Shown here piece after piece: positions 1 through 20,988 of a DNA stretch of 42,912 bases; position 1 is the first letter of the stretch, and the number at the start of each line of letters is the position of its first letter. The position numbers and the translations under genes are program-made. Source of the DNA: Chiloscyllium plagiosum (lineage: Eukaryota); assembly GCF_004010195.1 (NCBI RefSeq), contig NC_057759.1, positions 1,086,255 through 1,129,166 on the forward strand. Reading direction: 5' to 3'. The notes beneath the pieces are model-generated. The model was given only the letters and a program-made list of their open reading frames with translations. It was not told where the DNA came from and searched no databases.

Positions 1-760
1 CCATTCACCCGCTCTCAGTGCGGGAAGGGGTATGCGAATTCTTCCAACCTGCAGACACACCAGCGGGTCCACACCGGAGAGAGGCAATTCACGTGCTTGG
101 GGTGTGGGAAAGGGTTCACTTAATCATCTGCACTGCTGATCCACCAGCGGGTCCACACAGAGGAGAGGCCGTTCACCTGCTCAGTGTGTGGGAAGGGATT
201 CAGTCATGTGGGCCATCTGCAGACACACCAGCGGATCCACACGGGAGTGAAGCCGTTCATGTGCCCAGTATGTGGGAGTAGGTTCGCTGAGTCATCTAAA
301 CTCCTGATCCACCAGCGGGTCCACACAAGGGAGAAGCCTTCCATCTGCTCAGTGTGCAGGAAGAGATTCAGTCAGATGGGGCATCTGCAAAGGCACCAGC
401 AGGTTCAGACGGGAGAAAAGCCGTTGACGTGCCCCGTGTGCGGGAGGGGGTTCACTGAGTCATCTACAGTGCTGACCCACCAGCGGGTCCACATGCGAGA
501 GAAGCCCTTCACCTGCTCAGAGTGTGGAAAGGGATTCAGTCGGGTGGGTGACCTGTAGATGCACCAGCGGGTCTACACCAGGGAGTGGCTATTCACTTGT
601 CCCGAATGCAGGAAGGCATTCAGTCATGTCAGTAACTTGCGGACACACCAATGGGTCCACATGGGAGAGAAGCCATTCACCTGCCCGAGTGCGGGAAGGG
701 ATTAATTGATGCCTCCGGCCTGCGGATGAACGAGCAGGTCCACAGTGGGGACAGCCCGCT
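1..760 (+). pseudogene. C2H2 zinc-finger array, disabled (5' part outside window)
   Basis: Frame-1 CxxC...HxxxH fingers with TGEKPF-like linkers. In-frame stops at 121-123 (TAA) and 556-558 (TAG), a frameshift near 685, and several lost Cys/His. AATAAA at 865-870. Confidence 0.92.
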
Positions 761-5849: not shown

Positions 5850-8800
5850 AAGGGAGAGAGAAAGAAACCTACACTGCTAACTGACACAGCAGTGAATCTG
5901 CAATTACAGGACATCAGAGTGAGTGTAGGAAAAATTAACAAACAGCAAGATTCACAGCTACCTTTGGAGGAACCTGTGTGGGAGCGCGAGCAGCACAGGA
6001 ACAGATAAGTGCATATTTTAACGCGTAACCTTGCTGTATGTCTGCACCAGTGTACAGAGTGGGTTCTTTCTTGATTATATGTTTTATTGAAATCTGTCTC
6101 TTGATTAAATGTAAAAAATGTAAACTGTAAGTACTAGGTTAGCCTGGAGCACTGGTTTTTATAGCAAAACAATGGTGCTATTGTCTGGTTCTGTAGATTG
6201 TGGAGGAAATATGGCTTTTCTTAGAGTAATATGCTCTTCCTGTCGGATGTGGGAGTTTTGGGAGAGTTTCAATGTTACTGTTGATTACGTCTGCAGTAAG
6301 TGTTTGGTTGTGAATCCTACCGGATCACATGGATCAGCTGGAGTGACAGTCGAGGAATGAGGAAGTTACAAGAGGAATATTACAATGAGGAATACATCCA
6401 GGAAAGTTATTTGGGTGGAACTGAGAAATAAAGAGATAATCACCTTATTGCGATTGTACTACCACTGAATAATCAATCGAAAATAGAGAAACAAATTTGT
6501 AACGAGATTTCAGTTATCGGTAAGAACAATGGGTGGTTATGGTTAGGGATTTTAACTTTCCAAACACAGAAGGTGGTGTGACTGATGGCAGTTATCAGAT
6601 GGGAGAAAAACCGCAAACAGGTAGATGGGTTAGCTCCAGGAAAGGTAGGAGGGATAGGCAGGTAGTGCAGGAGTCTTCTGTGGTTACCCCCATTTCAAAC
6701 AAGTATGCTGTTTGGAAAATGTAGGGGGTGATGGACTGTCAGGGGAATGTAGCACAAACAGCCACATTACTGGTACCCAGGCAGGTTCTAATGCAATGAG
6801 GGTTAAGTTGGGATCCAAGCGATCGATTGTGATAGGGACTCTCCAGTCAGAGGCAGAAACAAGTTTATGTAGTCAGCAGCAAAAAATAAGAATGGTGTGT
6901 CACCTCCCTGTGCCAGAATCAAGGATGTCTCCGAGATGGTGCAGAATGATCTCAAAGGGGAGAGGGACCAGCAGGACGTCATTGTATACATTGGAACCAA
7001 CGGCAGAGGAAGGGAAAAGAATGAGATTCCGAAGGGAAAGTATAGAAAGTTAGGCAGGAAATTAAAAAGGTGGACCTTGAAGGTAGTCATATCTGGATGA
7101 CTCCCAGTGCTGTGAGCTAGTGAGTATAGGAATAGGAGGATAGAGCAGATGAATGTGTGGCTGAGGAACTGGTGCATGGGAGATGGGTTGACATTTTTGG
7201 ATCTTTGGAAATCTTCTGGGGTAGAAGTGACTTGTACAGGAAGGATGGATTGCACCTGAATTGAAAGGAGACCAATATTCTGGCAGGGAGATTTGCTAGA
7301 GCTGCTCAGGAGGGTTTTAACTAATAATGTGGGAAATAGTGAAGACAGAAATCAATCTGAGAGTGGTACAGTTGGGAAAGGGAACAAGTAAAACAGTCAG
7401 GGCAGGAAGGAACAAAGCAGAGAACAAGGTCGGACTGATAAATTAAACTGCATTTACTTCAACGCAAGAGGCCTAACAAGGAAGGCAGATGTCCTCAGGT
7501 CATGGTTAGAGACATGGTACTGGGATATCATGGCAATTACAGAAATGTAGCTCAGATGGTCAGGACTGGCATCTTCTCCTCCAGGATATAAATGCTATTG
7601 CAAGGATTAAAAAGGGGGCAAAAGAGGATTGGGAGTGATGTTTTTATAAGGGATGGTATTACTGCTGCACTTCGGGAGGAATACAACCAGGGAAGTTATT
7701 TGGGGGGAACTGTGAAATAACAAAAGGGATGAGCCCTTGATTGGATTGTATTATAGACCACCAAATAGTCAGCTGGAAATTGAGAAACAAATTTGTCAGC
7801 AACTTTCAGTTATTTGTAAGAATAATAGGGTGGTTGTGGTAGGGAATTGTAACTTTCTGAACATAGACTGAGACAGCCATAGTTTAAGGGTTTGAGTACT
7901 GTGGATGCTGGAGATTAGAGTAGAGAGCGTGGTGCTGGAAAAGCATAGCATTCGAGGAGCAGGAAAATCGACGAAGGGCTTTTGCCGCAAACGTTGATTT
8001 TCCTGCTTCTTGGATGCTGCCTGACCTGCCATGCTTTTCCAGCACCAAAGTCTCAGATCTAAAAGTTGAAGTTCTAAATTGGAGCAAGGCTAATTTTGAC
8101 TGTATTAGGCTGGAACTTTCAAAAGCTCATTGATCACAGATGTTCGCAGTCCAAGCAATGGCAGGAAAATGTGAAGCCTTCAAAAATTAGATCATGAGAG
8201 TCCAGAGACAGTATATTTCTGTTCAGGTGAAAGTAAAGGCTGGTAGGTAAAAGGAATGATGGGTGACTAGAAAAATTGAGATTTTCGTTCAAAAAAAGGA
8301 CAGAAGCATACGACAGGGACAGACAGAAGAGATTGAGTGAATCCTTCGAGTATAAAGTTAGTAGGAGTATATACTTAAGAAGGAAATCAGGAAGGCAAAA
8401 AGGGGACAGGACATAGCTTTGGTAAATAGGGTGAAGGAGTATCTGAAGGGTTTTTATAAATACATTAAGGACAAAAGGGTAACTAGGGAGAGAATAGGGC
8501 CCCTCAAAGAATAGCAAGGCAGCCTATGTATGGAACTGCTGGAGATGGGGGAGATACTAAACAAATATTTTGCATCAGTGCTTACTTTGGAGAAGGGCAT
8601 GGAATTTCAAAAATATGGGGAAATAGATGGTGACATTTGAAAAATGTCCATATTAGAGAGGTGGTGGTGCTGGATGGCTTTAAACGCACAAAGGTAGATA
8701 AATCATCAGAACCTGATCAGGTGTACCTTAGAACTCTGTGGGAAGCTAGAGAAGTGATTGCTGGGCCCCTTGCTGATCTATATGGACTTCAGTGAGGGGT

Positions 8801-9571: not shown

Positions 9572-9765
9572 GGAGCAACATGTGGATCATTTCAGAGAAT
9601 ATCTCTGGGATACTTGCACCCAGCAACCCCATTGTCATGTGGCTGAACACTTTAACTCCCCTCCCATACTTGCAAGGATACGTAGGTCCTTGGCCTCGTC
9701 CATCACTGAACCTTAACTGAGAAAGTCTATAGCCTTCAAACTTGTCTTTAAACATTTAGACTAAA
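8556..9765 (+). repeat. Tandem duplication (unit 1 8556-9006 with a 302-bp internal deletion; unit 2 9007-9759)
   Basis: Near-identical copies (3 A/G differences seen). ACTAAA junction microhomology. Includes the first ~48 bp of the LTR (8965-9012). Confidence 0.92.
9572..9717 (+). mobile_element. Penelope GIY-YIG fragment, left half (ERV integration target); continues at 20993-21019
   Basis: Decayed F-R-E-x-L-W-D-T...VAEHFNSP...LGL, continuing on the far side of the provirus as T-T-R-S-L-E-E-E-R-L. Confidence 0.75.
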
Positions 9766-10566
9766 ATGTAATGTTGAATTATAGAACACATTTACTGAAC
9801 TAGAAAATAGACAGGCAGGAAGGCTCAGAAAAAGAGGAGATCTCAGGGAATGCAGAAGATAGCGACATCTGGACTCACCAAATGATAACAGGATGCTGTA
9901 AGGCAATTAAGAACATTTGCCTTAGCATCAGTGAATCCGTGTGAACAGGACACCAAGTGATAACATTCACAGCCGTTCTCTTGTGAAATTAATGACAGTG
10001 TTTGACTTTGACCCTGAAACAAAACTCGGTACTATCAAAAGCTTTGTAATTAATGGTCAGATGCTGCCAATTATAACGGACTCTTATTACCCCTTGCAAG
10101 CAGGGCAGAGATAGAGAGAAAAAAAATCTTTGCTGACTTGAGAGTTCAAAAGGACACTAAGGGGAGAGACCATTTTAGTGGTGAGGCTATTGGAGCCTGT
10201 AGAAAATTAACTTAGTGCTTATCTGCTATGCACTGAATTTTACTGGATTTTGGGACTTTATGATGATATTGAGTAGCCATTACCAGGTAATATTAATGAA
10301 GCTTTCACTTACTTGCTGTTCTTGCAGGCCACTCTACAGACCTTACAGACTGCCCCAACTGTCAATTCTAACTAGTCAGATCTTATGTCTTATTTGAATT
10401 TGAATCACAAACTTGAAAAGAAAGCATGTTTAATTCGAGACTAATTAATCATTTTACATACAATGGTGCAGTAACATTTCAGCGTCAGGTACAGAATGAT
10501 TCTGTGCTTTAGATAAAAAGCAGGAATCTGCTCCCAGCTGAAAATTATTCTAAACCTAACATCGAA
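9718..10566 (+). repeat. ERV 5' LTR, U3 portion (part a)
   Basis: Collinear with 19468-~20338 at roughly 90% identity by eye. Confidence 0.92.
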
Positions 10567-11665
10567 CTCTGCCTATTTCCTTCTTAGTAATCCTCTGTTG
10601 TTCTTTAAAAGCTTCCCAGTCCTCCGTTTTCCCACTTATCTTTGCTATGTTATACTTTTTCTCTTTTAACTTTATATGTATCTTAACTTCCCTCATCAGC
10701 CACAGCCACCCATGCCTCCTCCTAGGATCTTTCTTCCTTTTTGGAATGAACTGATCCTGCATCTTCTGCATTATACGCAAAAATATCTGCCATTGTTCCT
10801 CCACTGTTATCCCCGCTAAGGTATTGCACCATTGAACTTTGGTCAGCTCCTCCCTCACAGCTCCATAGTTCCCTTTATTCAACAGAAATATTGTCACTTC
10901 TGATTGTACCCTCTCCCTCTCAAACTGCAGATTGAAGTTTATTGTATTATGGTCACTACTTCCCAATGGCTCCTTCACTTCGAGGTCCCTGATCAATTCT
11001 GGTTCGTTGCAAAATACCAGATCCAGAATTGTCTTCTCCCTGGTAGGCTCCAGCACCAGCTGTTCTAAGAATCCATCCCGGAGGCACTCCACAAAGTCTC
11101 TTTCTTGAGGTCCAATACTATCCTGATTCTCCCAGGCTACCTGCATGTTGAAATCCCCCATAACAACTGTAGTAACATATTTGCAACAGGCCAATTTCAG
11201 CTCCTGATTCAACTTATGTCCGACATCCAGACTACTGTTTGGGGGCCTGTAGATAACTCCCAAGAGGGTCTTTTTACCCTTAGAATTTCACAGCTGTATC
11301 CATACTGACCCTACATCCCCTGATTCTAGGTCCCCCGCGAAAGGGACTGAATATCATCCTTTACCAACATGCCCNNNNNNNNNNNNNNNNNNNNNNNNNN
11401 NNNNNNNNNNNNNNNNNNNNNNNNNNNNNNNNTCCGTCAGTCTGTCCTTAGGATAGCACGTGTAGCCTTGAATATTCATTTCCCAGGCCCTGTCCACTTG
11501 AAGCCACGTCTGTTATCCCCACAATATCATATCTGCCAAATTCCAGAAGAGCCTCAAGCTCATTCATCTTATTTCTAATGCTTCGTGCATTCATATATAG
11601 TCGTTATAATTTGTAACTGCCCTCACCCTTCCCATCAACTCCTATTTCACTCAACCTTACAGCAT
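10567..11665 (-). mobile_element. CR1 ORF2 endonuclease/linker fragment (spans gap 11375-11432)
   Basis: Open 235-aa frame with GVIYRPPNS, MGDFN, LDLVFCN and GSSDHN; no CR1 3' tail. Confidence 0.92.
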
Positions 11666-12128
11666 GATCCACAGACACAGAATGTCATCATAGCAGGGAA
11701 TAAAACAAAAGAATTGAGAAAAAAATAAATGCACAGTTGGTGCTTGTAGTTAATGTTTGTTCATTAGAAAGTAAACCTGAAATAGGGGTCTCCCAGGATT
11801 CTTTCCCCTTCTTGAGGAATTCTCTCTCCCTTACATCTAAATATTAGTACCTTGCTCTGATTTGTAACGATACTCTCGTCAACTGAAATAAAGTATCTGT
11901 TATCAAATAGACACAGAGATGTACAGCACGGGAAACAAAAATCTTTTCGATCCAACACCCCCGTGCTGACAATCTTCTCCTCTCACTCTAAACCTTTTGC
12001 ACCCCACCCTGGGGTAAATTACTTTCCCATTTTCCCTACCGTGCCCCTCATGATTTTAAAAACCTTTATGATCAGCAGGCATCTGGCAATCTAGCAGAAT
12101 TGCCACCTATGTTATGTGCATTTAACTG

Positions 12129-12169
12129 TACTAACAGTGATCAATCATTTTGTGAATTTATTTTTGCAG
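12129..12169 (+). promoter_or_regulatory. Branch point and splice acceptor of the zinc-finger coding exon
   Basis: TACTAAC at 12129-12135, a T-rich tract, and TTTTTGCAG|G at 12169/12170. Confidence 0.7.
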
Positions 12170-12496
12170 GAAGACATGCGGAAAGAAATCTGAAAGCACA
12201 TGATACATCAACTTCTGACAGAACCACTTGATTCATTGGGACTTGAATATCAGCAGCTATTCAAATCGAGAGGAAATGTTTGCTTTTGTCTGCTTGACAG
12301 GTTTTGGACACTGGTATGGCAGGAGGAATACGGAGACATCTGAGTGAGGGAGATTCAGTGCGCTGTCTGTGAAATGTGCTTCAAACCGTTTACTCAGCTT
12401 AGGGGATCAAACTGACACCACTCACTGTGGGGAGAAACTGTGTACACATCCTGTTTGTAATTTCAAACTCAGAGCGACGCAAGGAAAGCTCCCCCA

Positions 12497-13336
12497 ATGG
12501 GGAAACAGTGGAAATGTGGGGACTGTGGGAAAGGATTCCCTTCCCCATCAGTGCTGGAAACCCACAGACACATTCACACTGGGGAGAGACCGTTCACTTG
12601 CTCCGTGTGTGGGCGGGCATTCAGTCAGATGGGTCATCTGCAGAAGCACCAGCGGGTCCACACGGGAGAGATGCTGTTCACTTGCCCCGTGTGTGGGCGG
12701 GCATTCAGTCAGATGGGTCATCTGCAGAAGCACCAGCGGGTCCACACAGGAGAGAAGCTGTTCACTTGCCCCATGTGCGGGAAGGCATTTGCTCAATCAT
12801 CTGCACTACTGATCCATAACAGGGTCCACACCAGGGAGAGGCCATTCATTCACCCCTCTCAGTGCGGGAAGGGTTTTGTGAATTCTTCCAACCTGCAGAC
12901 TCACCAGCGGGTCCACACCGGAGAGAGGCCATTCACGTGCTTGGTGTGTGGGAAATGGTTTGCTTATTCATCTGCACTGCTGAACCACAAGCGGGTCAAC
13001 ACAGGGGAGAGGCCATTCACCTACTCTCTGTGCGGGAAGGAATTCATTGATTCTTCCAGCCTATGGACCTACCAGCGGGTCCACACGGGAGAGAAGCCGT
13101 TCATGTGCCCAGTATGTGGGAGGTGGTTCACGGAGTCATCTAAACTCCTGATCCACCAGCGGGTCCACACTGGGGAGAAACCTTTCATCTGCTCAGTGTG
13201 CAGGAAGAGATTCAGTCAGGTGGGATATCTGCAAAGGCACCAGCGGGTTCAGACGGGAGAAAAGCCATTCACTAACCCCGGAGCAGACTCACCGAACTGG
13301 AGACTTTTCCAGCTTTTTATTCTTTTCCAGATATAA
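12497..13336 (+). CDS. KRAB-less tandem C2H2 zinc-finger protein, 279 aa, 9 finger units (5 canonical), 3'-truncated array
   Basis: Starts MGKQWKCGDCGKGF. Fingers 1-4 and 8 are intact; fingers 5, 6, 7 and 9 lack a ligand. The array breaks after EKPFT at ~13273 and the frame ends in unrelated sequence. Confidence 0.8.
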   Translation: MGKQWKCGDCGKGFPSPSVLETHRHIHTGERPFTCSVCGRAFSQMGHLQKHQRVHTGEMLFTCPVCGRAFSQMGHLQKHQRVHTGEKLFTCPMCGKAFAQSSALLIHNRVHTRERPFIHPSQCGKGFVNSSNLQTHQRVHTGERPFTCLVCGKWFAYSSALLNHKRVNTGERPFTYSLCGKEFIDSSSLWTYQRVHTGEKPFMCPVCGRWFTESSKLLIHQRVHTGEKPFICSVCRKRFSQVGYLQRHQRVQTGEKPFTNPGADSPNWRLFQLFILFQI

Positions 13337-13584
13337 ACATTCATGTGAACAGCAGAGCAAGGCTAAAAAACATATTCCATTCTGGTTACATACAGATAAG
13401 AAGATTCACACGGGGAGGTGTGTAATAAGATTCACACGGGACTAAGCGACACCTTCCATTTTCGGTTAGATTCACACATGTATTGGGACACAATTTTAAC
13501 CCTTTCACCACATTCCACTGCTTGGCCCAATACATGTGTTACATTATGATTCACACATGTATTGGGACATAATTTTACACCACA

Positions 13585-13614
13585 AGTGCTAACCACTGTG
13601 CCACCGTGCCGCCC
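13585..13614 (-). mobile_element. HE1-like SINE head remnant (30 bp)
   Basis: Identical to 27850-27879 (agtgctaaccactgtgccaccgtgccgccc). Confidence 0.8.
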
Positions 13615-14066
13615 AAAAGAAAGCATGTTTAATTCAGCTAGGTGTGTTTTTCCTACATGATGGATCATTCAAGGCCTGTAGGAGTGATCAGTCAAGCGCA
13701 CACAGATCCGTCAGTTAACTCTTCTTCTTTACGAATTATTGTCTTTCACTGTTATCTGTTTAATTAAGAACATGCAATGTTTTTGTAAACTTTTGTATCA
13801 AGGAACACTACATCAGAGTAGCCAGCTAGTACTCTACTCCTAGTTAGAGACTAGTTCGTTTAGTTTATAGTATCAGTGTTATGTTGTTACAGTGTTGCTA
13901 TTAGTGAATGAAGGGGCTGATTAAAATTAAACTAAACAACTGTCTGTAAGAGGTTTTTATTCCAGACTTCCAAAGAGTACAATCTCCGGGATGAACCAAG
14001 AGAGAGGCTTTACAGGTCTGAATCCACAAGGGTTTACCTGGGCTGTCTCAAATCTGTACTTTAACA
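13615..14066 (+). repeat. ERV 5' LTR, part b (end of U3, R, U5)
   Basis: Aligns to ~20520-20988 and ends in TTAACA. The TATA and polyA equivalents are mutated (TGTATCAA, AATGAA). Confidence 0.9.
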
Positions 14067-14069
14067 ATT

Positions 14070-14087
14070 TGACGCTGTGAGCAGGGT
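14070..14087 (+). promoter_or_regulatory. Primer-binding site, tRNA-Ser(CGA)-type
   Basis: TGACGCTGTGAGCAGGGT lies 3 nt after the LTR. It is complementary to the vertebrate tRNA-Ser(CGA) 3' end (...CCTGCTCACAGCG-CCA), with a G>A change at position 3. Confidence 0.85.
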
Positions 14088-15650: not shown

Positions 15651-16084
15651 TCATTTGTCACCGTCTGTTGGGAGTGTTACAATTGCACAGATGAGTGAAC
15701 TTAAGACCACTGATTTTGATAAATCTAACTGCTGCTTTTAAAATCAGTTTGTACTCTTTAACCAGAAGGTCAAAGAAAATGATGCACTGCTGAAAGAACC
15801 AAACATTGCTAGTTTTTCAAAAAAAAAGGTATTTCAATTTAACTTTAAAGCAACCAGAAGTGCAAGTCAAATTCAAACTAATAAAATTTAAAATTCCACT
15901 TGGAAGAATTAGGCCACCGTACAGGTTGACAATTACAACTTTGCCCCCTAAATCAGTATTTACAGACAGCCTGTGGCATTCTACTGGCACCACATTTAAA
16001 TAATTCAAGATGAAAGTACACATGGCTCCTATATGATTACTTTAAAACTGCACCCAGATTCTCACAACCATCCATACTGTGGGA

Positions 16085-17983
16085 TTGGCTGCTTCTAATA
16101 TAACTTTGCATCAAAATGTAGACGTCTGTACCACCCATTCTGCAATATCCTCGCTTACCTCTAAACGTCCTCCACTCAGAATCTGCTTGTCTCCTTAAAT
16201 ACTGCTCTCACATTAACCCGGTTACATTCCTACAGGAAGAACGTCTTGAACTGCCTGATCCTCCCCATGATTGTGTTCTCATAAATTACCTTGTTACTAA
16301 ACCACATCCTGATCTTACTAATCAGGCTCTAGTTAACCCAAACCTTACACTTTATGTCGATGGTTCTTCTTCTATCTCTCCAGAGGGCAAAAGTATGTCA
16401 GGATATGCGATTGTCACTTTTTCCCAGACACGAGAAGCTTATTCTGTCGACCCAGCAAGCTGAACTCCTTATTCTCACCTGTGCCTGTATACTTGCTAAA
16501 TGAAAGTCAGCTAATATCTATACTGATTCCCATTACGCCTTTAGATGCGCCCATAATTTTGTTCAACTTTGACACCAGCGCAGCTTCCTTAGCTCATCAG
16601 GAATTCCGACCCTCAATGTTGCCTGTGATGCTAATCTCCTCATTGCTGTTCAATTTCCCTCTCAATTAACAATTATCAAACGTTCTGCTCACTCCTCTGA
16701 TACTTCCTTTGGCACTAAAAGCAACAATTCTGCTGACTCAGCTGCTAAGAAAGCAGCTCTTGAGCAAAAAGACATGGTTACTCAAATGACGAATAGGAAA
16801 CCAAAGAGAGACTCTCCTATTTCCTCTTCTGACACCCCAACCATGCCTGACCGAGAGCAAAGACGGACCCATCAGGGGGACGCCTCTGATGAGGAAAGAC
16901 AAAGACAAAGACAAAGATGGATGAACCATGGTTGTTATGTAAGCAGTTATAACAAGCTTTGGGTTACGCCGGTAAGACAGATACATCTGCCCTACATGCT
17001 TATGTTCATATGCATATGCACGTAGGTGTGGAGGGAATGGTAGACAGAATTCTCCAAACTTGGTGGAATTCCCACCTGAAAGAAAAAGCAAAACAAGCAG
17101 CTGCAAATTGCCTAATTCGTCAAAAGTATAATCCCGGGAAAGGAATAAAGTATCCACCAGGTGAAACTCCCTTGCCAAGTGCACCTTTTGATATTATCCA
17201 GTTAGATTTTATAGTTACCTAGATGCCACGGTTATAAGTATTGCTTAGTGATAATCGATGGATTATCCATTTAGTAATGGATTGACGCATATCCCTGTAC
17301 TGCATAGCAACAACTCCTTGTAAAATTCTGTTAAGGGAAATCATACCCAGATTTGGAATACTAGTAACGGTCTCTTCTGATAATGGCCCCCAATTCTGTG
17401 TGGAGCTCAACAAGGAACTATGTCAGAGCTTGAAAATGAATCAAAAATTCCATTGTGCCAACCATCCCCAAGCAGCGGGAACTGAAGAAAGAGCCAATGG
17501 TACCCTAAAAGGTCAGCTAAGCAAATTGTTAGAAGAAGCAGGCCTTAATTGGCTGCAAGTACTTCCAATCGCCCTTTTTAATATGAGACCCATGACACAG
17601 ACAAAGACAGGATTCTCGGTGGCTGAACTAATATATTGAAAGCCCCTGAGGATTCCCTGGTCTGCATCATTAACTGCCCAACACATTGTTGATGTGCATT
17701 TCATGGCAGAATAGATGCACAGGTACCTGATTAAGCTAACCAAAGCACTGCAGTCTTATCATCAACAGGTCAAATAAGCTTATCGGATACCAGGGAAGGA
17801 AGAAGAAAGAGCTCCAACATTTAAAGACATTAACCCTGGTGACTGCTTACTATTGAAAGACTTTAATTGTGGAAAATTGGGACCCCCTGGAAAAGTCCTT
17901 ATCAAGTTCTTCTGACAACTGAAACTGCAGTAAAGGTAGAAGGTAAAGGACATTGCAAGCTTGTAGCCCCCTCACAGTTCTAG
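16085..17983 (+). pseudogene. pol: ERV pol remnant (tether, RNase H, integrase)
   Basis: INPVTFL...PHDC...PDL; RNase H LYVDGS, QQAEL and IYTDSHYAF; integrase IIQLDFI, SDNGPQF, ERANGTLK and PYQVLLTTETAVKVEG; stop at 17981-17983. Confidence 0.93.
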
Positions 17984-19399
17984 TGTTAGCACTGATACAG
18001 GCATCCGATGAAAGCCCAACCTAAGTACATGTGCACAAATGTAACCAACCCTTCTGTGATAACTCAAACCAGCTAAAACTCCAATGTGACTGTACGTATG
18101 ATACCTGTACTAATACCATTGGATGTTATGAATGCAGCTGCCCAGCTGAAACTCATTTAAACTACTCCCATTGCGTATCCAAACATCACTCTCGACCTTA
18201 TTGTCATCCTTGCAACACTTCTATGCCAGTCATCGTGAGATGGCACAATTCCATAACTTTGTCCGTTCCGTCAACTGAAAATTACTACCTTGAGATGTTC
18301 CCTTTTCAAAATGAACCATGCAGATTGCAGTATTGAACACATAGTACAGAAATCACCAAACCCTAAGGCACCTATTGCCATGAGACTGACCATTTATACC
18401 TTCTTGATGGAATCCTATCTTATCCAACCTACTGCCACCGACAGAAATACCTTTACACATTTCCTGTATTCAGTAGCTACAGTAATGAACAAAACAAGCT
18501 GGAAAGATGAAGAAAGACCAAAAATACTGTGCACTCCCAATCCTCCTCCTGTTACCAATGGTTTCTTTATTCAAGTTAAGCCCCCTGACCCGTGTGTTAT
18601 CTGCTCACACTTCCATCATTCTAATGCCTTTACCACGTTTCACCCCCACCGTGAGATGCCTGAAGTCGATGATGAATGGAACACCCACCAGCAGGTGAAT
18701 CAGTATGAAACAACAAGTAGAGGTAAAACAAAACAGGACTTACACAACGTCTTCCATCAACAAACCTGGTGGTCCAGGTTGCTGGGAGGCCTTATTCCTG
18801 GCTGGGGTATTGAAATGGCCCTAGATCAGATAAGTGACCTTGCGTATGATATCAAAAAACCTGCCAACTCGACCGCCCATGCTTTGAAACTGGTGAACAA
18901 AGAGTTACAGGAGACTCAGATGATGACGATGCAGAATCGATTAGTGCTAGATTTCCCCCTTGCTAAAGGAGGCGACACTTGTTCAGTCATTGGCCCGCAA
19001 TGTTGCACCTACATCGATGATTTCTTGAACGACATTTTGGATGATACAGATGTTATCAACAAAACGGGTCAAGATGCAGGGAAGGTACCTGCCCCACAGT
19101 CATTCAATTCATGTGGATGGAGTTTTAATTGCTGGTTATTGTCGCTGTACGGATGGATCCCGTGGGACTTACTGATAATCCTTGGTCTCATCCTAGGAAT
19201 ATACATTGCCATCCGGTTATGCATGAAATGGATCGTACATTGCTTTTCACCTAAGCCAAAGAGGAATCTGATTAATCGACCCATGTCTCCCCCTCTACTT
19301 CCATGCCCGAACTTCCATGTTGAAATCCAGTATTTTTCAGATTCTGCTCCTCCGGATGATGACTCGCCAGAGGAGGCACTTGACTTATTAAGAATATAA
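17950..19399 (+). pseudogene. env: ERV env (gamma-type TM) with N-terminal EGF-like module
   Basis: Signal peptide PLTVLVLALIQA overlaps the pol end. Stop at 18022-18024 and a frameshift at ~18300-18400. CVIC, fusion peptide WWSRLLGGLIPGWGI, ISD MQNRLVLDFPLAKGG, CX6CC (CSVIGPQCC), a TM helix and a cytoplasmic tail. Confidence 0.93.
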
Positions 19400-19467: not shown

Positions 19468-20988
19468 TGAGAAAGTCTATAGCCTTAAAACCTCTCTTTA
19501 AACATTTAGACAAAAATATAATGCTGAATTATAGAACACATTTACTGCACTAGAAAATAGACAGGCAGGAAGGCTCAGAAAAAGGGGGGATCTCAGGGAA
19601 TGCAGAAGATAGGGACATCTGGGCCCACCAAATGATAACAGGATGCTAAGGCAAAGTTCTTAATTGCCTTACAGCATCGGTGAATCTGTGTGAATAGGAC
19701 ACCAAGTGATAACATTCACAGTAGCTCCCTTGTGAAATTAATGAGTGTGTTTCTTTCTGACCCTGAAACGGAACTCGGTACTATCAGAAGATTTGTAATT
19801 AATGGCAGGATGCTGCCAATTATAATGGATCCTTATTAACCCTTGCAAGCGGGGCAGACAGAGAGAGAGAGAAAAAAATCTTTGTTGACTTGAGAGTTCA
19901 AAAGGCCTTTAGAGGGAGAGACCATTTTAGTGCTGAGGCTATTGGAGCCTGTAGAAAATTAACACTTAGTGCTTATCTGCTATGGATTGAATTTAACTGC
20001 ATTTTGGGACTCTATGATGCTATTGAGTAGCCATTACCAGTTATTAAATCCAAACTCTGCAAGAGGTAATATTAATGAAGTTTTAACTTACTTGCTGTTC
20101 TTGCAGACAACTCTACAGAACTTACAGACTGCCCCACAGTCAATTCTAACTAGTCAGATCTTATGTCTTGTTTGAATTTGAATCAAACTTGCAGAGAGTG
20201 TTTAATTCGAGACTAATTATTCATTTTAAATACAACCTTGCAGTAACATTTCAGCCTCAGGTACAGAATGATTCTGTGCTTAATATAGAAAGCAGGAATC
20301 TGCTCCCAGCTTAAAATTATTCTAAACCTAACATTGAAGAGATTCTGACACAATCTGTCAGGAAGCCATGTTATGGTCAAAAATTTGCCTTCTTTGCTAA
20401 GAAGCCATTTCGTAAAACAATGATATCAGATATGCGAGCTGTGCAAGATTACCTTATGACATCTCCCACTTAATTTAGACTGGTACTTCTTTATAGGAAC
20501 TTATCTCGCGAGCAAATGCTTAACTCAGCTAGGTATGTTTTTCCTACCGGATGGATAGCTCAAGGTCTGTAGGAGTGATCAGTCAAGCGCACACAAATCT
20601 GTCAATTAACTTTTCTTCCCTACGAATTATTGTCTTTCACTGTTATCTGTCTAATTAAAAACATGCAATGTTTTTGTAAACTTTTGTATAAAAGAAGTCA
20701 CTTTGTAGCAGTACACCGGAGTAGCCTGTTAGAGCACTTGAGGAGATGGTACCCCACTCTCCTAGGATATTTAAACTCGTTAGTTTAGCTTATAGGTATC
20801 AGTGTGATGTTGTAACAGTGATACTATTATTGAATAAAGGAGATGACTAAAATTAAATTAAACTGTCTGTAAGAGGTTTTTATTGCAGACTTCCAAAGAG
20901 TACGATCTCTGGGATGAACCAAGAGACAGGTTTACAGGTCTGAGTCCACAAGGGATTCCCTGGGCTTTCTCAACTCTGTATTTTGACA
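19468..20988 (+). repeat. ERV 3' LTR, complete, 1521 bp
   Basis: TG...CA termini; TATAAAA at 20687-20693; AATAAA at 20833-20838. Confidence 0.93.

Follow-up and report, generated by a model that had tools for sequence, protein, structure and literature searches.

The stretch of DNA analysed here, referred to as the window, comprises 42,912 nucleotides of Chiloscyllium plagiosum and carries a decayed provirus, whose parts are listed below by their positions in the window.

9718..10566, plus strand: upstream piece of the 5' LTR, 86% identical to 19468-20338
10567..13624, no strand assigned: secondary insertion inside the 5' LTR, the gap between the two LTR pieces
12461-13336: C2H2 zinc-finger exon inside that insertion, with zf-C2H2 profile matches
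13625..14066, plus strand: downstream piece of the 5' LTR, 80.5% identical to 20516-20988
14070..14086, plus strand: primer-binding-site-like word adjoining the LTR end, with the same word behind the LTR in loci L063 and L066
14857..15991, plus strand: broken remnant at the gag position, recognised by blastn collinearity with sibling proviruses
16049..17990, plus strand: pol remnant, RNase H/integrase part (rve, E=3e-4 at 17286-17636)
17950..18003, plus strand: signal peptide of Env, read in a different frame from the pol end that it overlaps, its 5' start damaged in this copy
18040..18093, plus strand: first four cysteines of an N-terminal Cys cluster, on the 5' side of a junction
18094..18098, plus strand: junction, where 543 nt (181 codons) of a long subfamily are absent by blastn
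18098..18174, plus strand: 3' half (C3-C6) of a calcium-binding EGF, containing the motif at 18106-18141
18175..18626, plus strand: SU core of no known family, with CxxC as CVIC at 18593-18604 and a frame break near 18296
18627..18736, plus strand: SU end, with the SU/TM boundary near 18719-18736
18737..19399, plus strand: gamma-type TM, with TLV_coat and Ebola-like HR1-HR2 weak in this copy
within the TM: fusion-peptide-like segment 18767-18808, ISD 18929-18955, CX6CC 18980-19006, membrane helix 19169-19213
19468..20988, plus strand: 3' LTR

The word at 14070-14086 presumably resembles the 3' end of tRNA-Ser. The zinc-finger exon at 12461-13336, within the LTR insertion of ~3 kb, resembles another one at window positions 1-760, and a sibling provirus (L153+L154) keeps its LTR pair unsplit, unlike the 5' LTR of the window. 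Three siblings on the window's own contig (G000:C50; near 1.92, 3.33 and 6.18 Mb) have flanks ~80-94% identical to window 1-31895, and this shared flanking DNA shows that a single insertion in a zinc-finger cluster was multiplied by segmental duplication.

Protease and reverse transcriptase (RT) are mostly missing from the pol remnant of the window; siblings score above cut-off for RVT_1, rve and MLVIN_C. Comparison of a sibling RT piece with solved structures gave E values of 2e-28 for MLV, 2e-16 for foamy virus and 6e-8 for HIV-2, and in a sibling integrase (IN), in which MLVIN_C was above cut-off, the core found its best match in foamy IN. As listed in PMC9967133, the marks of a gamma-type Env are a CxxC in SU, a fusion peptide, an ISD, a CX6CC and a membrane helix. 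Among the loci of the family that reach TM, CXXC is present in SU in 11/19 short and 4/7 long copies (CVIC in the window), CX6CC in TM in 14/19 short and 2/7 long ones, some of which end early, and a furin-type basic SU/TM site (K/R-x-K/R-R before D-L) in 7/19 and 1/7, the window copy being without it. In the window the ISD precedes CX6CC, and TLV_coat is above cut-off in sibling L015. A signal peptide and one membrane helix are present as judged by hydropathy peaks only, the signal-peptide peak (LTVLVLVLIQA in L002) likewise being a matter of hydropathy alone. On these sequence features, the provirus is a class I endogenous retrovirus (ERV) with a gamma-type Env, whose RT is closest to that of MLV among solved structures.

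The env of the window is decayed. It is 18 nt shorter than its siblings near 17944, is interrupted by a stop at 18022-18024, loses its frame near 18296 and misses at 18627 some 430-440 nt found in most siblings. The translation of the env frame given in a first-pass annotation of this DNA proved exact (TLQACSPLTVLVLALIQA at 17950-18003, the stop at 18022-18024 and CTNTIGCYECSC at 18106-18141), as did its reading of 18106-18141 as a match to the EGF Asx-hydroxylation pattern (PS00010 type, C-x-[DN]-x4-[FY]-x-C-x-C), which is the single match in the six frames of the window. Chance provides a mean of 0.015 such matches (maximum 1) in 200 dinucleotide-block shuffles, and the pattern extended with its flanking cysteines was found in 0 of 200. 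The cysteines at 18055, 18091, 18106, 18133, 18139 and 18172 follow the spacing C-x11-C-x4-C-x8-C-x-C-x10-C, in agreement with the one originally described. The location of the segment behind a hydrophobic signal peptide and in the env frame was also borne out, since the frame is open there in sibling L002, extending over 259 aa that begin ahead of the start codon, take in the EGF segment and reach SU. The extra cysteine of the G-C-Y word is a private change of the window copy, with G-S-Y in its closest siblings. An adjacent Asn-rich frame (MCTNVTNPS...) was considered as the true env and rejected, as the same stops close it in the siblings inspected. The Pfam profile comparison that had been proposed matched no family with the window peptide, and the window copy alone is thus no proof of an EGF domain.

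The decisive information comes from the rest of the family. Altogether, 67 distinct loci were compared, the counts being lower bounds that include duplicated pairs and groups, and they fall into a short, window-type subfamily and a long one: an extra segment is wholly or partly present in 24 loci and absent in 43. A segment private to the window copy, the possibility against which the initial proposal had guarded, is contradicted by the 30 best DNA matches, all of which carry the Cys segment behind a signal peptide. In the short copies the first four cysteines are kept in 27/33, 33/34, 30/34 and 32/32, and the hydroxylation Asx in 34/36, with the aromatic residue of the motif replaced by His in 16/36. 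Every one of 13 sibling short-form segments matches EGF-clan models at E<=10 and none (0/13) lies above the Pfam cut-off, the best score being that of EGF_CA (E 1.9e-5, 25.2 bits vs a cut-off of 27). A search of 1.84 billion representative proteins with the short-form ORF of L002 returned three matches, all of them arrays of calcium-binding EGFs (cbEGFs) aligned on the Cys segment. The N-terminal calcium ligands are absent from the window and from the short form, and are located in the 543 nt that these lack. Within the short form, the copies on unplaced contigs L069-L073 form a tight clade sharing ~500-750 nt extra inside SU, which suggests a further local amplification.

The long copies were first revealed by a protein search of the genome, in which matches began only from residue 55 onward. 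Their Env is ordered as a signal, an eight-Cys cluster, a Thr-rich stalk, a full EGF, a full cbEGF, the same SU and a gamma-type TM; the stalk comprises 68 aa with 40% Ser+Thr, and eight sequons lie within the first 263 aa. The two tandem modules contain 12 cysteines, with G-Y-T-G-N-G and D-D-E-C in register. The Pfam cut-off for EGF_3 is exceeded in 2/4 natural long-form ORFs, module 1 scoring 35-44 bits vs a cut-off of 28.5, and of 12 aligned stop-free natural EGF pairs 11 match EGF_3 (best E 1.2e-11) and eight EGF_CA at E<=0.1. Cysteine retention per position ranges from 13/18 to 18/19, and the calcium motif, which reads D-D-E-C, is kept at its D/N (15/19), D/N (18/19) and E/Q (14/18) positions, as are the hydroxylation Asx (19/20) and the aromatic residue (16/19) of the cbEGF. 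Against the sequences of the PDB, a profile of the pair found its best match in EGF I-II of uromodulin, collinear across both modules (E 0.0037); a profile was required, as a single-sequence EGF pair gave 0 matches in the same search. Matches of the profile to RBX1 were discarded as Cys-pattern noise. An Atlas search placed EGF-clan members in 10/10 of the best named clusters, with scores of 0.85-0.88 that count at lead level only. Judged from profiles and residues, module 1 is an EGF-like domain and module 2 is, by its motif, a calcium-binding EGF, and that the ERV family carries true EGF-class sequence is almost certain.

Structural modelling was less informative. AlphaFold reached a pLDDT of 33.5 for a natural long-form ORF and 41.4 for the 12-row pair, too poor to judge the fold, and Foldseek on the poor EGF-pair model found nothing at E<=0.001 (best E 4.5). 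The first Cys cluster was considered as an old EGF, which remained unsupported (best E 0.15 for the profile of the long-form cluster vs host EGFs). In the long form, as seen in locus L060, a short D-A-T-C-R-N word closes the first Cys cluster (~6640-6670) and recurs within EGF1 (6895-6920). Such a repeat hints at internal duplication; homology beyond it was not supported when profiles were compared. The data bear directly on the sequence class, the architecture, the junction, the presence throughout the family and the selection on the shared half; the fold and the function are putative.

A close-up view of the junction revealed how the two forms are related. They differ in frame by 543 nt (181 codons), with two blastn pieces on every long copy tested, and the spacing at the junction is identical in 37/43 short loci, the other six having secondary indels. 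In the window the junction lies at 18094-18098, between cysteines 2 and 3 of the domain first described, and the EGF seen there is accordingly a hybrid, with its first two cysteines from the upstream cluster and its last four from the cbEGF. Its spacing of x11, x4, x8, x1 and x10 compares with x12, x5, x8, x1 and x10 in the long cbEGF, and the junction preserves both the reading frame and an even number of cysteines. The absence of the D-x-D/N-E-C calcium motif from the window, also pointed out by the first-pass annotation, was confirmed and is explained by the junction, which leaves out the front half of the cbEGF, as D-D-E-C sits in the absent 543 nt. In trees of IN (14 long and 27 short loci of sufficient sequence) and SU (21 and 42), the long and short forms are two sister clades, and this midpoint-rooted topology does not give the direction of change. 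Since the cbEGF of the long form extends whole across the junction, loss is favoured over insertion, from which we infer that the short form arose from the long one by loss of the 543 nt. The proposal that a host EGF had been captured at the N-terminus of SU therefore holds in one part, since EGF sequence of host type is present throughout the family and was kept by selection, and fails in another, the module of the window being a hybrid and not an intact capture.

That selection was seen in pairwise comparisons of natural copies (36 short and 20 long), as net divergence between subfamilies. For the 26 shared EGF codons the net dN/dS was 0.14-0.18, with a bootstrap P(dN>=dS) of 0.008-0.022 and an upper 95% bound of 0.69-0.93, and it was 0.17 when C50-type duplicates were collapsed to one; 86 codons of the SU core gave 0.42-0.49, and IN and TM 0.12-0.15. 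Between the subfamilies, the EGF half that they share evolved under purifying selection, at a dN/dS of ~0.15. Within subfamilies dN/dS was 0.75-1.4 (0.85-0.88 within the group for the long-only segment), as expected from decay after insertion. Copies are ~86% identical within each subfamily and 77% between them, and LTR pairs 80-87%, identities which indicate that both insertion waves are old. The signal peptide, EGF, SU and TM form one ORF in 0/67 natural loci, many of which end before TM: the longest open frame reached 368 aa and none joined the EGF/SU start to the ISD, so that no intact single-locus ORF of a co-opted (syncytin-like) env was found among the 67. In a 2% sample of one RNA run, 14 reads fell on the stretch; identity was <90% in 13 of these, and the EGF part was covered by none.

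The family is shared with other organisms. Contigs of two of them (B and C) covered 30/30 bins of a long copy in both cases. In organism B, single contigs span the signal region, the long-only segment and SU, and the short-form joint is visible on another contig. The long-only segment is also covered by contigs of organism C, one of them with 96% identity over 404 nt, probably an orthologous insertion, and loose ends there fit the short form.

As for the origin of the modules, no host donor gene was identified in the genome, the best host exons (fibrillin-like arrays and one other exon) reaching E ~1. The best single-exon match to module 1 was a host EGF_3 exon with a C-S-T-C-H start (L114:3946-4182), which we take to be SUSD1-like and which is too weak a match for a donor. 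Two uninterrupted frames of 734 and 899 aa (L109:7746-9947 and L110:3927-6623; G000:C9 near 28.62 Mb), with tandem cbEGF repeats and many sequons, are giant EGF-array exons of a host gene, unusual vs genes with one EGF per exon. For the SU core, word-indexed protein searches, the 1.84 billion proteins, IMG/VR and JGI metagenomes gave no relatives, and the best Atlas score was 0.75, to an unnamed entry. Among 30 other env loci of the genome, with 23-37% TM identity, 0/30 matched an EGF profile, a count in which the 1.5-kb flanks may miss the SU start. One env of an unrelated ERV family (L150:3061-4908) has an uninterrupted frame of 616 aa and no EGF, and very long env 'ORFs' were rejected, having turned out to be runs of N.

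Altogether, these observations allow a history to be proposed. An ancient class I retrovirus with a gamma-type Env would have gained coding sequence of host type, an EGF followed by a cbEGF; the absence of introns from the EGF sequence is consistent with its having been captured, through template switching, from the mRNA of a cell. The EGF pair would then have stood on a Thr-rich, sequon-rich stalk at the N-terminus of mature SU, before the CxxC-bearing core and a standard TM, and may have tethered the virion to a partner on the cell surface or in the matrix, a role that EGF/cbEGF pairs play in proteins of uromodulin, fibrillin and adhesion-GPCR type, with the SU core and TM driving fusion. 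One lineage would later have lost 543 nt in frame, whereby the rear half of the cbEGF came to follow the first Cys cluster directly, a loss that would have restored a six-Cys EGF spacing and removed the D-D-E-C calcium ligands. The short form also entered the germ line many times, and the window holds one decayed copy.

What the modules did is a more delicate issue. Adhesion and matrix-binding ectodomains usually consist of EGF/cbEGF pairs carried by glycosylated stalks, and the viral modules are located where a gamma-type Env has its receptor-binding domain; the best reading of the architecture, towards which the balance tips slightly, is that they may have been an accessory attachment module. 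As the short form spread without stalk and EGF1, the modules were presumably not the sole determinant of entry, unless complemented in trans, and given that spread, EGF1, the stalk and the calcium motif are either dispensable or complemented. A shield or immune decoy, in which the glycosylated stalk and self-like EGFs would hide the SU core from antibody or engage complement or lectin pathways without docking, seems unlikely but deserves consideration: the mucin-like shields on filovirus GP offer a parallel, and the Thr-rich stalk, the eight N-glycan sequons, the host-like sequence and the tolerated loss of most of it are all in keeping with such a role. Selection nevertheless kept the Cys/Asx core of the cbEGF, which a pure shield does not need, and the short form retains the EGF half and discards the stalk.

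The same selection bears on whether the domain was a tolerated passenger, constrained only to fold and pair its cysteines for ER quality control, with the SU core as the true receptor-binding domain. The 181-codon loss was viable and kept the frame and an even Cys count at the junction, and the aromatic residue is often His in short copies (16/36), as a passenger might show; on the other hand, the SU core has a higher dN/dS than the shared EGF half, though with overlapping intervals, and a useless N-terminal domain could have gone entirely, which makes this reading rather improbable. Simple retroviruses require dividing cells, and this need, together with weak hEGF matches, would suit a growth-factor mimic that, like the growth factors of poxviruses, stimulates receptors of the EGFR family and makes target cells enter the cell cycle. 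EGFR ligands are recognised by their spacing and G-x-R-C end, both absent from all rows of the pair alignment, and the best matches are cbEGF arrays and uromodulin; with modules of uromodulin/fibrillin type devoid of the ligand signature, such signalling is very improbable. Finally, a cysteine pattern arisen by chance or convergence within a Cys-rich SU, for which the unmatched window peptide, the short-form segments below cut-off and the Foldseek result could be quoted, is scarcely credible, being largely refuted by the two tandem modules and the above-cut-off EGF_3 scores of the long form.

Returning to attachment as the preferred role, we tentatively advance, as a scenario somewhat short of an even chance, that a retrovirus of cartilaginous fishes built its receptor-engaging end from a captured host EGF and cbEGF on a mucin-like stalk and then recombined it into a hybrid EGF, changing its partner or its calcium dependence. 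To our knowledge, the SU N-termini in which the origin of retroviral receptor-binding domains is to be sought share no sequence across lineages. Here an SU N-terminus is recognisably of host type, in dozens of insertions, under selection and in two architectures joined by one junction. In nature, a gamma-type fusion machine tolerated large host modules at its tip. If the scenario above is true, retroviral SU would be built on a modular plan, taking up adhesion domains of the host as determinants of entry. The family is dead and its function putative, which limits the impact, and the N-termini of fish and amphibian ERV Envs suggest themselves for a cheap screen for host extracellular domains.

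No natural retroviral Env with EGF modules was found in the open-access papers searched. Neither 'EGF' nor 'mucin' appears in the main texts of bioRxiv 10.1101/2021.11.23.469661, whose supplements may include the family, and of PMC9967133; the main text of PMC13709493 is likewise devoid of 'EGF', which PMC12813294 contains as EGFP only. As described in the main texts of PMC9967133 and bioRxiv 10.1101/2021.11.23.469661, the gamma-type Envs of fishes and amphibians share with the present one the signal, the CxxC, the TM marks, the class I pol and the env/pol overlap; unlike them, this SU opens with an EGF/cbEGF pair and a Thr-rich stalk, and its core has no detectable relative. Frog ERVs hold a captured OGFr inside pol, according to the main text of bioRxiv 10.1101/2021.11.23.469661, and as far as that account goes both cases represent intron-less coding sequence of host type fixed in a virus family, the frog one in pol and the present one on the virion surface, at the usual receptor-binding position.

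Among cellular proteins, EGF I-II of uromodulin and repeats of fibrillin/ADGRE5 type share with the viral pair the order of EGF then cbEGF, the collinear cysteines, D-D-E-C and C-x-N-T-x-G-S-Y-x-C-x-C; unlike them, the viral pair has longer loops and no D8C or ZP, the similarity being at family level only (E 0.004). Poxviruses encode EGF-like growth factors as separate genes of DNA viruses, with the EGFR-ligand signature; in both cases a virus carries a host EGF fold, which here would be part of the fusion protein. The closest design is an artificial one: Cosset et al. are said to have engineered in 1995 EGF-MLV Env display chimeras with an EGFR ligand at the N-terminus of SU, which resemble the present Env in bearing an EGF-fold module at that position and differ from it in that the module found here is natural, of the cbEGF class and kept by selection.
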